6,019 nt of DNA from a virus (taxonomy: Duplodnaviria; Heunggongvirae; Uroviricota; Caudoviricetes): IMG/VR virus record IMGVR_UViG_2541047433_000011, one strand, 5' to 3'. Below, one piece after another: positions 2,315 to 5,987 of the stretch. Below the pieces are notes generated by a model. It ran no database searches and was not told where the DNA came from. It worked only from the letters and a program-made list of their open reading frames with translations. The position numbers were made by a program, and so were the translations under genes. Position 1 is the first letter of the stretch; every line of letters begins with the position of its first letter.

Positions 2315-2409
2315 GCTTCACCTCCGCAGAGATCAAACGCTGGATGCAAGACATCGCAGGTGCATTTCTGCATCTGTGACAAGGTAAGGAGTTCAGATTG
2401 TGGTCGCAT
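2311..2409 (-). CDS. Small ORF (32 aa, [32 protein letters not shown]), possibly ylcH-like; absent from the ORF track
   Basis: ATG at 2409..2407 is preceded by an in-frame stop and an AAGGGGA ribosome-binding site; its TGA overlaps the ybcN GTG start. Size and position upstream of ybcN fit ylcH of DLP12, but I do not recognise the sequence itself. Confidence 0.4.
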
Positions 2410-2428
2410 TTAAGTCCCCTTAAATGCG
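2405..2428 (-). promoter_or_regulatory. Perfect 10-bp stem / 4-nt loop hairpin covering the ribosome-binding site and start codon of the ylcH-like ORF
   Basis: Plus strand CGCATTTAAG (2405..2414), loop TCCC, CTTAAATGCG (2419..2428). On the minus-strand mRNA the loop and 5' arm hold the GGGGA ribosome-binding site and the 3' arm holds the ATG (2409..2407). Confidence 0.4.
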
Positions 2429-2433
2429 CAGAA

Positions 2434-2462
2434 GTCACCGGAGTTGTTCAAGCTCCGGTGAC
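2434..2462 (-). terminator. Perfect 10-bp stem / 9-nt loop hairpin, possible weak terminator at the end of the inserted module
   Basis: GTCACCGGAG (2434..2443), loop TTGTTCAAG, CTCCGGTGAC (2453..2462). It is GC-rich, but on the minus strand it is followed only by UUCUGCGCAUUU and on the plus strand by AUUAUUAU, so neither strand has a clean U tract. Confidence 0.3.
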
Positions 2463-2504
2463 ATTATTATGGAAGGTTGATACTAAAAAATCAAAAATTG
2501 AATA

Positions 2505-2696
2505 TCATTGGCGATAGTCTAGCTTGTGATATCCACAAGCTACTTCAATGAAGCGACGAGTAACATTTTGTGTCATCCATGTTTTTTCAGTTAAGTGCCA
2601 CACCCAGTTCAAAATTTGCTGATGTGTTGAACATGTACTAAGCGGGATGTTGTATTCATAAGCAACATTGATTCCGCAAAATCGGTGTCGTGTCAT
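2505..2696 (-). CDS. Hypothetical 63-aa ORF, doubtful; possibly a gene remnant
   Basis: ATG start but no recognisable ribosome-binding site, and no similarity I can recall. It lies in the stretch where K-12 DLP12 carries ybcL/ybcM, and contains a 9-bp inverted repeat at 2520..2542. Confidence 0.2.
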   Translation of the reverse strand: MTRHRFCGINVAYEYNIPLSTCSTHQQILNWVWHLTEKTWMTQNVTRRFIEVACGYHKLDYRQ

Positions 2697-2815
2697 GACC
2701 GATTCACGTTGACCTGCGCCCTGTTGAGTGCCTGGGGATATTCTTGCTCGATAGTTAATATCATAGTAGTTACTTTACTTTCATACCATAGCACGGTTGA
2801 AAAAGTGATTATTAC

Positions 2816-4342
2816 TCAAAAATAAACCTCACCATCAACCATATATTTGAGAGCACTTATCGCCTGCTGGGCGGATATTACTTTCATTAAAGGATAGTGT
2901 TTAAAAACAATGCCATTCATAAAATAGATATCACAGGTTTTATTATCCGTATTAATTATGATTTTTTCGAATATTTTATAGGCAAGTGTACGGCATAACT
3001 CTCGTCCATTTTTACTGGTTAAGTCAATAGCATAAAAATCACTGAATGAATTTACACCTTTACTCTTCAAAGTTTTCAATGATACCAAAGCTCTTCGTAA
3101 TTCCTTATCTAATAGTCTTATTTTCTCTGCTATAGCGGTAACTTCAGGCGCGACAGACAATGCAACGATTAAATTATTAATTTTCATCTGAAGCTCAATA
3201 ATTTTTAACTCTAAAGTTTCATTAGCATCTTTCTTGTTTTCAACTGGTTGAATTTTGCTACAATTAAAAAGCAATTCATTAATGATATTATAATCAACCA
3301 AATCTCTCTTTATTGATGGCCTGTCACATCGATGTAATCTTCTCATCGGACAAACATAATAGCCATGCAAACTTCCAGATACCGCATGAACAATCATGGT
3401 ATTACCACAAGCCTCACACTTCATAACTGTTCGAAGTAGATTTATTAGCATAGGATTCTTGCTACTATTGCTAATACCAAAAGGTGCCAACCGAATTTCC
3501 TGTACAGCGTAAAACAAATCATCTGATATGACTCTGGGATAATAGCCAGCGATTTCACTTATCCCTTTCCCTCTTGCACGATATGAAGGTACGCATATAC
3601 CTATCAGAGCTTTATTCGCTAATAATTTTTCAATTACAGAAGGCCCCCATGCACTTTCTTTTCCTGAGAAATTCTTTACAGCATGATCATTTAAATACTT
3701 GGCTATTGCATTCAATGAGCGCCTTTCCATCCTGAGTTTAAAAATTAGCTCAATAGTTTTCACCCTGTCGGGGTCTGGAACAAAAGCCGTTCTTTTGTCA
3801 TCTAAGGAGAGCCATCTCGGACAAGACGCCGTCATAATCGTACCTGATTCCAGTGCATCCTGCCGTTTTTTCTTCCATGATAATTTAACCCGACTTGACT
3901 TTATCTCGCTTTCTTCATTTGCCCTTTGTGCTATAAGTATGGCTTTTATTAATGAATATGGCTCATTCAAAGAGTCAATATTATAGACTGTATTGTCGCA
4001 AAGAGTTATAACATCAATACCGTGATTCAAAATCAATTTCAGACGTTCAATCGCTTCACCGACTTTTTCTCTTGAAAGTCTGTCCAGACTTTCAACTAAC
4101 AATGTAGTTCCTGGCAATATATAACCATGCTCTATAGCATCTAAAAATTCCGAAAAAGCTCCTGATTGTGCATGCTTTCCTTTGAATGCACTTAATCCTA
4201 AATCTTCATATGTTATGGTATCAAGATAATAATCACTATTTACCTTTAACCATTCAGCAATAAGTCTTCTCTGTCGGTTTAATGAGTCGCCAGACATCTG
4301 ACCTGGTGATGAAAATCGCATATATGCTATGGCTTTTTTCAT
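2816..4342 (-). CDS. ybcK: Large serine recombinase YbcK (508 aa)
   Basis: The N-terminus AIAYMRFSSPGQ carries the resolvase catalytic-serine motif (compare Y-x-R-V-S-T-x-x-Q), and ESLDRLSR matches the resolvase DRLGR-type motif. A C-terminal Cys cluster (CEACG...YYVCPMRRLHRC) suggests a zinc ribbon, followed by a Lys/Glu/Leu-rich tail. Matches my recollection of DLP12 YbcK; AGGTG ribosome-binding site before ATG 4342. Confidence 0.9.
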   Translation of the reverse strand: MKKAIAYMRFSSPGQMSGDSLNRQRRLIAEWLKVNSDYYLDTITYEDLGLSAFKGKHAQSGAFSEFLDAIEHGYILPGTTLLVESLDRLSREKVGEAIERLKLILNHGIDVITLCDNTVYNIDSLNEPYSLIKAILIAQRANEESEIKSSRVKLSWKKKRQDALESGTIMTASCPRWLSLDDKRTAFVPDPDRVKTIELIFKLRMERRSLNAIAKYLNDHAVKNFSGKESAWGPSVIEKLLANKALIGICVPSYRARGKGISEIAGYYPRVISDDLFYAVQEIRLAPFGISNSSKNPMLINLLRTVMKCEACGNTMIVHAVSGSLHGYYVCPMRRLHRCDRPSIKRDLVDYNIINELLFNCSKIQPVENKKDANETLELKIIELQMKINNLIVALSVAPEVTAIAEKIRLLDKELRRALVSLKTLKSKGVNSFSDFYAIDLTSKNGRELCRTLAYKIFEKIIINTDNKTCDIYFMNGIVFKHYPLMKVISAQQAISALKYMVDGEVYF

Positions 4343-4586
4343 GGTGACACCTGCTAACTTATGCTTTTATAAACCTTAGTGGTGAGATATAATTTTTGTT
4401 TAATTTTTATTTAAAAAGACAATTACGATCACACTATCTTGAATATACAACAATAATCGTATTGCAATTTGCTTACGCAATAATCTTGAAGGCACAAAAG
4501 AATACACAAAAACTAAAAACATTAACAAAAGCGGCCCATGTAAAGATATGAACCGCCATATTGCAGTCTTTTAAAAGAAATTATTT
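4343..4586 (-). promoter_or_regulatory. AT-rich emrE-ybcK intergenic region, likely holding the ybcK promoter
   Basis: A 244-bp non-coding stretch that is extremely AT-rich and has many -10-like hexamers (TATATT, TATATC, TATAAA). No single promoter can be assigned with confidence. Just after the emrE stop there is a weak GCGG/CCGC stem followed by UUUUGUU on the minus strand (about 4524..4557). Confidence 0.3.
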
Positions 4587-4919
4587 TTAATGTGGTGTGC
4601 TTCGTGACAATAAATTAATAACCAACACACCGGCACAAATCAACATCATGCCTATAACGGCTGGCAGGTCCAGCCGTTGGCCGAAAAACCCCCATGATAG
4701 TAAGCTAATCAGGACAATACCGACTCCTGACCAGATAGCATAAGCAATCCCTGTAGGAATATAAGCCAGCGTCTGAGCTAATAACCAGAATGATGCACAA
4801 TAACAAATAATTGTACCAACAGATGGCCATAACCGTGTAAAACCTTCTGAAAACTTCATTAAGGTTGTACCAATGACCTCTGCAAGTATTGCACCACCAA
4901 GATAAATATAAGGGTTCAT
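4587..4919 (-). CDS. emrE: SMR-family multidrug efflux transporter EmrE (110 aa)
   Basis: Translation MNPYIYLGGAILAEVIGTTLMKFSEGFTRLWPSVGT... is recognised as EmrE, including the essential Glu14. The true start is ATG 4919..4917 with an AGGAAAG ribosome-binding site; the ORF-track start at 4973 is a TTG extension. Confidence 0.95.
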   Translation of the reverse strand: MNPYIYLGGAILAEVIGTTLMKFSEGFTRLWPSVGTIICYCASFWLLAQTLAYIPTGIAYAIWSGVGIVLISLLSWGFFGQRLDLPAVIGMMLICAGVLVINLLSRSTPH

Positions 4920-4934
4920 AACATATTCTTTCCT

Positions 4935-4969
4935 GTTCAAACTGGAGAGAATTGTACTACAGTTTGAAC
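4935..4969 (-). repeat. Perfect 10-bp inverted repeat with 15-bp spacer between ren and emrE
   Basis: GTTCAAACTG (4935..4944) and CAGTTTGAAC (4960..4969) are exact reverse complements. No U tract follows on either strand, so it is not an intrinsic terminator. It sits directly upstream of the emrE ribosome-binding site. Confidence 0.5.
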
Positions 4970-4986
4970 TCAACTCACCTGTTTCA

Positions 4987-5289
4987 TCATTGTGTACCCA
5001 TTGATGTTCTTTTATATACCCTCAATACCCGTTTCATCGCGGCACTCTGGCGACACTCCTTAAAAATCAGATTCGTGCTCACCTTTCCTTCCCGTTCTTC
5101 TCTGGTAGCGAACCGGTAATACACCGTTCGCCAGACCTTACCATCAACGACCAGGATTCCTGCCCGCGCCATTTTAGCCGCAGCCTGATTTATGCTGGTT
5201 ACGGTTGCACCTGTTACCGCGGCAACGTCCTGTGCACAGAAGCTCTTATGCGTCCCCAGGTAATGAATAATTGCCTCTTTGCCCGTCAT
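4987..5289 (-). CDS. ren: Ren protein (100 aa), intact
   Basis: Translation MTGKEAIIHYLGTH...VWRTVYYRFATREEREGK... is recognised as lambda Ren. ATG 5289..5287 overlaps the P stop (ATGA), with an AAGGAG ribosome-binding site. Confidence 0.9.
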   Translation of the reverse strand: MTGKEAIIHYLGTHKSFCAQDVAAVTGATVTSINQAAAKMARAGILVVDGKVWRTVYYRFATREEREGKVSTNLIFKECRQSAAMKRVLRVYKRTSMGTQ

Positions 5290-5987
5290 ACACTTGCTCC
5301 TTTCAGTCCGAACTTAGCTTTAATTTCTGCGATCTTCGCCAGAGCCTGTGCACGATTTAGAGGTCTACCGCCCATAACAGGAAGTTGTTTTACTGGTTCA
5401 GGTATCGTCTCACCACGGTTAATTCGCGCTGTCATACAGGTCAGTTCATCGGCAGCCTTGCGCCGTAATTCCGCGTCAGTCAGCGCATTGGCCCGCATGT
5501 TCTGGTACAGGTTGGTAACCAGCCAGTAGTGCGCGTTCGATTTCCACGGATAAGACTCTGCATCCGGATACAGGCCTCGCTTCCGGCAATACTCGTAAAC
5601 CATATCAACCAGCTCGCTGACGTTTGGCAGTCCGGCGATAACGGATGCTTCTTCCCGGCACCATGCAACAAACTGCCCGGGTGATGGAAGAAATGGTCGA
5701 TTCTGCCGACGGGCTACGCGCATTCCTGCGTTAACCTGTTCCATCGAGGTGATCCCGTTTTCCCGGAAAGCCAGAACCCACTGGCGGCGGATTTCGTTCA
5801 GTTCGTTCTGGTCACGGTTAGCCAGACTCGCCGGGAAAGTTGCCAGTAACTGGCTGAACACACCGTTGATGATCTGCGCTACCTGCTGTACCTGCGGCTT
5901 TTCGTCGTACTGTTCCGGCATGTTGTTGGCGATCCGACGCATCTGCTCACGGTCAAAGTTAACCATCTGTGCGGCGATGTTTTTCAT
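5286..5987 (-). CDS. P: Replication protein P (DnaB helicase loader, 233 aa)
   Basis: Translation MKNIAAQMVNFDREQMRRIANNMPEQYDEKPQVQQVAQIINGVFSQLL... is near-identical to lambda P across its length. The start overlaps the O stop (ATGA). Confidence 0.95.
   Translation of the reverse strand: MKNIAAQMVNFDREQMRRIANNMPEQYDEKPQVQQVAQIINGVFSQLLATFPASLANRDQNELNEIRRQWVLAFRENGITSMEQVNAGMRVARRQNRPFLPSPGQFVAWCREEASVIAGLPNVSELVDMVYEYCRKRGLYPDAESYPWKSNAHYWLVTNLYQNMRANALTDAELRRKAADELTCMTARINRGETIPEPVKQLPVMGGRPLNRAQALAKIAEIKAKFGLKGASV

Follow-up and report, generated by a model that had tools for sequence, protein, structure and literature searches.

The ybcK gene and its product

The window analyzed here, a 6,019-nucleotide stretch of DNA from a virus (Caudoviricetes; IMG/VR record IMGVR_UViG_2541047433_000011), contains on its minus strand a 508-aa ORF with an ATG start (ybcK, 2816..4342) that is assigned to the large serine recombinases (LSRs) by Pfam, PHROG, and NCBIfam matches. 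It had been recorded in E. coli before; in matching genomes it is labeled "recombinase family protein", and it is one of the few predicted site-specific recombinases of E. coli K-12 without known function, listed among 16 in PMC5426353. No study of YbcK recombination activity was found in the searched literature.

Three Pfam matches, all exceeding the curated cut-offs, cover the N-terminal and central parts of the protein: a resolvase (catalytic) domain (aa 4-161, 3860..4333; PF00239, E 5e-19), which contains the Ser11 codon (4310-4312) and a D87-R88-L-S-R91 motif (4070-4084); a Recombinase domain (RD; aa 191-284, 3491..3772; PF07508, E 2e-14), for which the family profile aligns to the RD of SprA; and a zinc-ribbon domain (aa 302-357, 3272..3439; PF13408, Zn_ribbon_recom, E 8e-8) with the ligands C309, C312, C331, and C339. 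AlphaFold secondary structure places after these a predicted coiled-coil arm (helices aa 369-397 and 401-426, 3065..3238) that has an A-P-E/D-V turn and aligns to the SprA coiled coil, and a structured, conserved C-terminal domain of beta strands and a helix (aa 444-508, 2819..3013; pLDDT 82-94); PHROG 2371 spans aa 348-508. All of these features lie on the minus strand.

In an alignment of 22 family members (40-61% identity), R9, S11, Q15, D87, R88, L89, S90, and R91 are invariant, as are the four zinc-ribbon cysteines, and R447, C470, G477, and P484 are conserved in the C-terminal domain; the catalytic and zinc residues are kept unchanged across genera. Judging from motif position, the R9/S11/D87/R88/R91 set is probably equivalent to R8/S10/D67/R68/R71 of gamma-delta resolvase. 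A preliminary description of this DNA had claimed a full LSR layout, catalytic intactness, and a DRLSR-type motif, and these claims agree with the domain matches and the invariant positions. The S-x-x-Q motif that it named must be replaced by R9-x-S11-x-x-x-Q15 as the nucleophile motif, because position 12 varies within the family, and what it took for a charged C-terminal tail is not a simple tail; it is predicted to be the coiled coil (about aa 369-426) followed by the structured domain of aa 444-508.

The description had also proposed a comparison with LSRs by fold and profile, which supports the assignment. The AlphaFold model (pLDDT 79) gives full-length Foldseek matches to SprA (9dxd/9dxh), PhiC31, Bxb1, and LI integrase (4kis), its N-terminal fold matches serine recombinase catalytic domains, and the family profile matches SPbeta SprA; a single-sequence PDB search with YbcK gave no match, so that these matches come from the profile and fold searches only. 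YbcK thus resembles SPbeta SprA, PhiC31 Int, Bxb1 Int, and Listeria LI/A118 Int in its four-part architecture, catalytic residues, and full-length structural matches, with an identity of 14-19% to such phage integrases in structural alignments. Its match to PHROG 95 ("integrase") is strong (E 7e-120); PHROG 125 ("DNA invertase") matches the N-terminal half only and far more weakly. The sole NCBIfam match is XisF, at 46.9 bits, far under the 375-bit cut-off, and SpoIVCA (CisA) of B. subtilis emerged as its counterpart in a published remote-homology search; in contrast to the XisF/SpoIVCA excisases, there is no site-flanked interrupted gene here. By profile and predicted structure, YbcK is a complete, intact LSR, with resolvase, RD, zinc ribbon, a predicted coiled coil, and the catalytic residues present.

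The gene was found in 1426 of 5426 complete E. coli genomes (26%) and in 12 isolated phage records, plaque-forming phages included. Apparent matches on plasmids proved to be mislabeled chromosomes of 1.3 and 4.9 Mb. Sampled copies are intact in 87 of 88 cases; several O157 strains carry IS1203 within ybcK. Across 50 alleles dN/dS is 0.05-0.09, and polymorphic codons are more often synonymous-only (79) than amino-acid-changing (46). The gene is under purifying selection and is not a decaying relic.

Flanking DNA and phage context

The invariable upstream neighbor in E. coli is emrE (4587..4919, minus strand; PF00893, E 3e-35), which encodes an SMR efflux pump and is linked to ybcK in all sampled loci. 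A terminator scan identified an intrinsic terminator (4530..4557, minus strand; a 10-bp stem, then TTTTGTT) that separates the two genes. Between it and the start codon lies the AT-rich ybcK leader (4343..4529, minus strand), which contains a small annotated ORF (4400-4522, the ylcJ region). In 1402 of 1406 genomes the leader runs without a break; its nucleotide diversity (pi) is 0.006-0.035, against 0.044 at ybcK third codon positions, and the 125 nt adjoining the ATG are more conserved than those positions. An RNA switch or RBS-occluding fold was sought in the leader, but no fold was significant, with z-scores of about 0 in E. coli and in seven relatives, and an Rfam scan of the window found nothing. 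A Rho/NusG-dependent terminator has been reported in the 5' UTR of K-12 ybcK (PMC4150792), and the gene is silent in K-12 (PMC4150792, PMC10954037).

About 66 nt past the ybcK stop (2750..2815, minus strand) are common to most E. coli variants; beyond them the flanks diverge into different cargo sets. Flank breakpoints fall at window positions 2750, 2777, and 2807, and diversity rises to 0.2-0.4 directly after the stop codon. These 66 nt and the upstream stretch of about 240 nt that includes the leader (4343-4586) are the only noncoding DNA that always accompanies ybcK. The adjoining segment (2495..2749, minus strand) is the remnant of a variable cargo slot, with a 63-aa ORF (2505-2696; PHROG 2559) and a deleted copy of a P22AR-C-like ORF; other phages fill the slot with at least 10 alternative gene sets. 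Whatever the cargo, the ybcN backbone resumes at a fixed boundary (2405..2494, minus strand), where a promoter-like TTGATT-17-CATAAT (2494-2466) precedes two conserved hairpins (2462-2434 and 2428-2405); this boundary is not ybcK-specific. Downstream of ybcK, ybcN is found within 0.5-3.3 kb in all 84 E. coli loci with enough flank.

E. coli O157:H7 genomes 99-100% identical to the window carry it in a prophage at icd that has its own tyrosine integrase and excisionase; ybcK is internal, with ren/emrE on one side and ybcN on the other. This prophage, with a truncated O and no immunity region, is defective. The isolated and viable phage Perceval also combines the two: Int/Xis occupy the canonical place and emrE-ybcK lies in the nin region, between ren and ninB/ybcN. 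Examined as a phage integrase, ybcK neither adjoins the prophage/chromosome junction nor is the sole integrase of its element, whereas the SprA, PhiC31, Bxb1, and LI enzymes adjoin attP and are the sole integrases of their phages. YbcK is not the integrase of the prophage that carries it, as the preliminary description had thought likely from its internal position; the gene is an accessory of the nin (delayed-early) region in lambda-like phages that integrate by their own tyrosine integrase.

The description had further stated that the substrate of YbcK is not evident from the window, and no att-like site pair was recognized there. Searches for direct and inverted repeats around ybcK returned short, chance-level matches, none significant at the block ends in the window, and the window holds a single copy of the emrE-stop motif CATTAAAAATAATTT. 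The two regions that the description had put forward for recombination assays (2405-2700 and 4920-4990) are poor candidates; both are also present without ybcK. Segment 2405-2494 is part of the ybcN upstream module and occurs in prophages lacking ybcK, emrE has the 4935-4969 inverted repeat beside it also where ybcK is lacking from the genome, and 2495-2749 is one of the interchangeable cargo remnants.

Two further candidates for element boundaries were rejected. One is a remnant of the emrE 3' end, considered as a right-hand boundary common to ybcK elements; of the 10 E. coli cargo classes, the alpha/beta-hydrolase class alone carries it (13 of 86 loci), and a direct emrE-hydrolase junction was looked for and not found. 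The EC958-type arrangement emrE-ybcL-ybcM beside fliE resembles a clean "empty site"; it is a deletion-riddled remnant, and its 8-9% divergence and quuD fragment mark a degraded prophage from which ybcK may simply have been deleted. When YbcK and the two small neighboring ORFs were compared with the PADLOC defense models, no family matched at E <= 0.01.

Relatives of YbcK

Relatives of YbcK (40-61% identity) invariably border on cargo genes, whether in phage nin regions, after tail-fiber genes, or on plasmids. Those of 60% identity are found in nin regions beside DinI, KGG, SIR2, or colicin-immunity genes; others follow tail-fiber genes and adjoin UmuD'-like or UmuDC genes, and plasmid members stand alone between cargo modules. 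Only the LSR gene and 40-120 nt upstream of it are common to the different contexts. In four independent lineages the LSR-plus-cargo block is flanked by a backbone gene and its diverged partial duplicate, the duplicated genes being DUF1367, lambda-P-like, DUF2280, and the emrE 3' end. Insertion of a circle by a Campbell-type event would produce partial duplicates of this kind. The two DUF1367 copies differ almost only synonymously, which shows that both were formerly functional alleles.

CcrA/CcrB (SCCmec), TnpX (Tn4451), and TndX (Tn5397) are LSRs that move a cargo element, not a phage, and are encoded at one end of it; in these systems the ends of the element are defined, circular intermediates occur, and the targets are known. 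Relatives of YbcK similarly stand at the head of small cargo blocks, a likeness of layout. Compared with such transposons or cassettes, the family has partial duplicates in four lineages, whereas in E. coli ybcK is single-copy at one location, and block boundaries vary between contexts.

The serine recombinases Pin (e14), PinR, PinQ, Gin, and Cin are, like YbcK, accessory to a tyrosine-integrase prophage, and some YbcK relatives directly follow tail-fiber and tail-fiber-assembly genes, the classical invertase position. Invertases, however, are about 190 aa long, end in a C-terminal helix-turn-helix, and flank an invertible segment, whereas YbcK has 508 aa with RD/ZD and a coiled coil. Considered as a DNA invertase of the Hin/Gin/Pin type, ybcK has no flanking inverted repeats and shows no inversions at 86 loci, and there are no inverted HSPs among the 86 downstream flanks that would mark an invertible segment.

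Possible roles of YbcK

The reading that we prefer, with rather low confidence, is that YbcK may be a recombinase that moves an accessory cassette and is silent in lysogens. By analogy with other LSRs, YbcK dimers would bind two sites of 40-50 bp through the RD and zinc-ribbon domains, and their coiled coils would synapse the two sites; Ser11 would then cleave both strands at a central dinucleotide, with subunit rotation preceding rejoining. In the lysogen, ybcK would be silenced by the emrE terminator, the Rho-dependent leader terminator, and AT-rich silencing, and YbcK would be produced only when antiterminated pR transcription traverses the nin region. The least certain step is the role itself: the putative cassette would be headed by ybcK, which lies between emrE and interchangeable cargo, and YbcK would insert or exchange it between phage and plasmid backbones and would not integrate whole phages. 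Because the DNA more than 66 nt past the stop has been replaced, the window may hold at most one YbcK site, which would account for the invisible cognate pair.

Observations consistent with such a role are the intact LSR residues, purifying selection, and prevalence of the gene, its co-residence with a tyrosine Int/Xis, its silencing, the association with cargo across the family, the jump in diversity at the stop codon, and the partial duplicates in four lineages. Others point away from it. There is no att-like pair and no significant repeat at the block ends, and block boundaries differ between contexts; the emrE 3' remnant is confined to a single cargo class, and the candidate empty site is a prophage remnant. 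In E. coli, the single copy, fixed place, and unbroken leader, with no inversions or permuted prophages seen, amount to no trace of recent YbcK activity. The partial duplicates could stem instead from ordinary recombination between diverged phages, an origin with which the once-functional state of both DUF1367 copies agrees, and the arrangement at one locus (L027) does not fit a simple single-crossover insertion.

Alternatively, YbcK might be a second integrase for the whole phage, with attP beside ybcK (for example in the conserved leader) and attB in the chromosome, making lysogeny possible when the primary site is occupied. We regard this as unlikely. The PHROG 95 match and the conserved leader adjoining ybcK are in keeping with it, as is the location of relatives at prophage ends beside ssrA, lepA, or another prophage. 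It also draws on Ec03, an LSR from E. coli that Durrant et al. (2022) validated and whose attP/attB pair was used experimentally (PMC10083194). YbcK is 33% identical to Ec03 over 374 aa, is of similar length (the Ec03 gene has 1521 nt), comes from the same species, and shares idiosyncratic motifs around the zinc ribbon. Unlike Ec03, YbcK has no recognized att pair, and the pair computed for the LSR cluster that includes a 61%-identical relative is that of a tyrosine-integrase prophage, as detailed below. The constancy of ybcN after ybcK (84 of 84 E. coli loci) and of emrE before it, together with the unbroken leader, indicates that no prophage is permuted at ybcK, and in Erwinia at least one other phage gene separates the relative from the chromosome.

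Less probable still is an action of YbcK in trans, in the lytic cycle, on the DNA of the host or of a rival phage, for instance to rearrange or disable a competitor or a host locus, as a further nin-region recombination function beside NinB, RusA, and NinG. The position between P/ren and ninB-rusA-Q recurs in two 60%-identical subfamilies in phages of different genera, strong purifying selection maintains ybcK in viable phages, and the partial duplicates left beside relatives are in phage genes (P, DUF1367, and DUF2280), all of which such a role could explain. Against it, there is no known target and no match to a PADLOC defense model, ybcK is present in a minority of lambdoid phages only, and plasmid members of the family occur without phage context.

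We consider it improbable that ybcK is a functionless relic hitch-hiking with emrE in cryptic prophages. The defective O157 prophage, the IS1203 insertions, the silence of the gene in K-12, and the failure to find a site would all suit a relic; the low dN/dS, the excess of synonymous-only codons, the intactness of nearly every copy, the invariance of catalytic and zinc residues across genera, and the presence of ybcK in plaque-forming phages do not. A DNA-binding regulator or structural factor that has lost recombination is very improbable: no recombination product or site is detectable and overexpression alters solvent tolerance and cell shape (PMC7181518), but the conserved Ser11, Arg/Asp catalytic set, and coiled coil would be superfluous for a pure DNA binder.

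The cassette role can be extended to the family as a whole, whose members would then be "moron integrases", with phage and plasmid accessory slots, not the bacterial chromosome, as their natural substrate. This broader proposal is doubtful; if it is true, these enzymes would insert or swap small cassettes (an efflux pump, DinI/UmuD'-type SOS modulators, defense genes) and would be the source both of the partial duplicates beside relatives and of the hypervariable slot that begins at the ybcK stop. Cassette movement by YbcK would likewise supply a mechanism for part of the turnover of morons in the nin region, and would make YbcK an E. coli-native LSR with a new site specificity for the genome-engineering toolbox. 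In any case the gene is not prophage debris; viable lambda-like phages that can integrate without it carry it as a conserved, constrained component, and it raises the question of what use a second, serine-type recombinase is to a lambdoid phage.

The published computational att assignment for the LSR cluster that includes the 61%-identical relative is flagged here as that of the carrier prophage's tyrosine integrase. The attB/attP pair has a 26-nt identical core at the 3' end of SdsR/RyeB, and this sdsR/ryeB site is occupied by a tyrosine-integrase prophage, so that the pair is that of the carrier phage and not of the LSR.

The ybcK gene and its product

The window is the replication-to-antiterminator stretch of a lambda-like prophage, with all genes on the minus strand: P (5286-5987), ren (4987-5289), emrE (4587-4919) and ybcK (2816-4342), then, across a gap of 500 bp, a ybcN/ninB-like gene (1859-2314), followed by ninE, ybcO, rusA and ylcG, and by Q (224-913). 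Within roughly 2400-4990 the GC content drops to 30-40% from a level of about 50%, consistent with foreign accessory DNA.

The ybcK ORF is complete (508 amino acids); Pfam identifies three large serine recombinase (LSR) domains, each above its curated cut-off, and in PHROGs the protein matches phrog_95, an LSR integrase family (E 7e-120). Full-length relatives (505-523 amino acids, 40-61% identity), retrieved by searching 5.8 billion proteins, come from Atlantibacter, Yersinia, Erwinia, Pantoea, Kluyvera, Citrobacter and Ewingella; R9, S11, Q15, D87, R88, R91 and the four zinc cysteines are invariant across 22 aligned relatives. An AlphaFold model built on a 22-sequence alignment (pLDDT 79) places a two-helix coiled coil after the zinc ribbon, followed by a structured C-terminal domain. 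Its top PDB matches are full-length serine integrases (SPbeta SprA, PhiC31, Bxb1 and a Listeria integrase), and SprA is also found at the sequence level with the YbcK family profile. Domains, family, residues and fold agree with the preliminary description of an LSR with intact layout and catalytic residues, with two amendments: the motif read as S-x-x-Q is R-x-S11-x-x-x-Q, and the supposed charged C-terminal tail is a domain. The manner in which YbcK would cut and rejoin DNA is inferred from its family.

Of 5426 complete E. coli genomes, 1426 carry the gene, nearly always as a single copy; it is also present in 12 records of isolated lambda-like phages. A sample of 88 from E. coli, drawn from IMG/VR (80 copies) and from reference loci, has 87 intact copies and 50 nucleotide alleles; pairwise dN/dS is 0.05-0.09, and 79 polymorphic codons are synonymous-only versus 46 that change the amino acid. 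ybcK is under strong purifying selection, and YbcK is established as an intact LSR under selection.

The literature searches turned up no work on the activity of YbcK. The protein has been listed among 16 site-specific recombinases of K-12 (PMC5426353) and paired with SpoIVCA by remote-homology search (PMC6637259), and its overexpression raised sabinene tolerance (PMC7181518). Ec03, a validated E. coli LSR, shares 33% identity with it (PMC10083194).

Accessory status and expression

E. coli O157:H7 genomes match the window at 99.1% identity overall and at 100% across positions 2316-4990. One such genome has the prophage at icd; a tyrosine integrase and an excisionase of its own are encoded at the junction, and lambda-type head and tail genes are present. 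In the isolated lambda-like phage Perceval, tyrosine integrase and excisionase genes occupy the classical position, and emrE and ybcK lie between ren and ninB. Among E. coli loci with enough flank, emrE is always upstream of ybcK and ybcN lies 0.5-3.3 kb after it (84 of 84), and 1402 of 1406 genomes have an uninterrupted ybcK 5' end and leader. No prophage shows permutation at ybcK, and hence YbcK has not been used to integrate these phages. Together with the internal position of ybcK and the tyrosine integrases, this bears out the preliminary view that YbcK is unlikely to be the integrase of this phage, and establishes it as an accessory gene.

An intrinsic terminator follows emrE (4557-4530, minus strand). 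Between this terminator and the ybcK start lies an AT-rich leader, whose last 125 nt are more conserved, at a pi of 0.006-0.035, than ybcK third codon positions (0.044); a search of the leader for RNA structure gave nothing significant. In K-12, a Rho/NusG-dependent terminator is reported in the ybcK untranslated region (PMC4150792) and Hfq/polyphosphate binds ybcK (PMC10954037). Because of both terminators and this binding, we infer that ybcK is silent in lysogens; by analogy with lambda, it would be transcribed from pR solely under N antitermination. Such expression of the nin region, ybcK included, is unlikely in the O157 host, because its prophage (L001 25794-28090) lacks the repressor/N region and has a truncated O, which abuts the excisionase and integrase genes; these losses make the prophage defective. 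In several O157:H7 strains (H4-H11 and H26; e.g., NZ_CP038360.1, 3089769-3093757) ybcK is interrupted by the IS3-family element IS1203, and is thus dispensable in this cryptic prophage.

Candidate recombination sites

As first described, no substrate is evident from the window; no cognate site pair was recognized there. The two regions proposed for recombination tests, 2405-2700 and 4920-4990, are poor candidates, since a promoter-hairpin module in the first (2405-2494) is also found in prophages lacking ybcK and an inverted repeat in the second (4935-4969) is kept with emrE in genomes lacking ybcK, so that neither is tied to ybcK. The repeat (13 nt, 92% complementary, 9-nt spacer) lies between ren and emrE and probably belongs to the 5' control region of emrE.

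The promoter-hairpin module comprises a sigma-70-like promoter upstream of ybcN (TTGATT-17-CATAAT, 2494-2466) and two conserved hairpins (2462-2434 and 2428-2405), all on the minus strand. The stems carry G-U-type and compensatory changes in the sense of that strand: C-to-U changes preserve G-U pairs in the first, and the second has three differing stems around a constant GGGA loop. Neither hairpin is followed by a U-run, and Rfam gave no match to the module. The module may serve the nin region as a regulatory RNA element, e.g., a processing or antitermination signal.

This module is the single sharp boundary at which all cargo variants downstream of ybcK rejoin. Diversity rises sharply to 0.2-0.4 directly past the ybcK stop codon; about 66 nt are common to most variants, and beyond them E. 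coli phages carry at least ten cargo sets, including ybcL-ybcM (K-12), an alpha/beta hydrolase, a P22AR-C-like 107-amino-acid ORF followed by varied genes, and IS elements (variants at loci L008, L095, L097, L113, L115, L159-L161 and L176). In the window, the slot (2495-2815) is reduced to a remnant with a 63-amino-acid ORF (PHROG 2559). About 2600 E. coli genomes have emrE without ybcK, most with emrE at 92% identity. In the one such genome examined, EC958 (L007 4168-6419), emrE, ybcL and ybcM are contiguous and adjoin fliE; as a 100-bp piece of the 3' end of quuD also lies in it, the block looks like an old, deletion-riddled lambdoid prophage remnant.

A computed attB and attP have been published for LSR cluster10915 (103 proteins), whose representative is a 61%-identical YbcK relative (phylogeny table and supplementary file 3, PMC10083194). 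Both sites contain an identical core of 26 nt, located at the 3' end of the SdsR/RyeB sRNA gene, which lies downstream of yebY. A prophage occupies this location in E. coli strain R1 (L240 1436-1594), with tyrosine integrase and excisionase genes right at the junction, and the relative resides in a nin region; the assignment to the LSR is therefore probably wrong, the pair being the carrier prophage's site and uninformative on the LSR's substrate.

ybcK was already known and annotated, and the preliminary finding is correct; what is added is evidence that the gene is functional and accessory, the removal of the proposed sites, and two better candidates: the leader (4343-4586) and the 66 nt that follow the ybcK stop codon.

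Possible roles and the contexts of relatives

As the role of YbcK we tentatively favor that of a recombinase that moves cassettes, because in phages and plasmids the family occurs only at cargo edges, different contexts share the LSR gene alone, and partial duplicates flank LSR blocks. The 60%-identity subfamily also lies in nin regions (typically LSR-DinI-DUF1367-NinG-Q); other relatives lie at the late end of prophages of myovirus and siphovirus type, after genes for tail fibres and their assembly, adjoining ssrA, lepA or another prophage and accompanied by UmuDC or a conserved pair (an 80-amino-acid protein and a UmuD'-like protein); and on Duffyella and Pantoea plasmids each member is a lone gene flanked by cargo modules. 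These contexts have in common only the LSR gene and 40-120 nt upstream of it.

In four independent lineages an LSR-plus-cargo block lies between a backbone gene and its diverged partial copy: DUF1367 (first 60 codons, 85% nucleotide identity, differences nearly all synonymous; L089 9652-9851/12633-12831), a lambda-P-like gene (384 nt, 76%; L186 9296-9672/12231-12607), DUF2280 (248 nt, 84%; L027 9273-9519/16149-16394) and the emrE 3' end, of which a 38-55-nt remnant lies 286 nt past ybcK in E. coli of the Perceval/SE15 class (SE15, L095: -264..-227 before ybcK, +286..+323 after it). Single-crossover insertion of circular DNA would leave such duplicates, but recombination between diverged phages can also produce them, and L027 departs from the simple single-crossover arrangement. 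Against cassette movement, E. coli has no sign of recent activity and the block ends are not definable.

A back-up integrase is unlikely, and a recombinase acting in trans during lytic growth quite unlikely. That ybcK is a relic is improbable and contradicted by dN/dS; a non-catalytic role is very improbable.

In Pantoea coffeiphila the LSR gene is directly followed by a tandem duplication of some 1.25 kb (L027 11740-13876) and then by a DUF3800 gene; the two ORFs of the duplication (208 and 142 amino acids) have no Pfam match. SOS/translesion-type accessory genes recur beside YbcK relatives, as the 80-amino-acid and pre-cleaved UmuD'-like pair, full UmuDC-like operons or DinI (L002 9092-9684; L090 12207-12772; L092 9212-9845; L183, L195; L013, L193, L194, L012, L179; L089, L182, L189-L192, L235).
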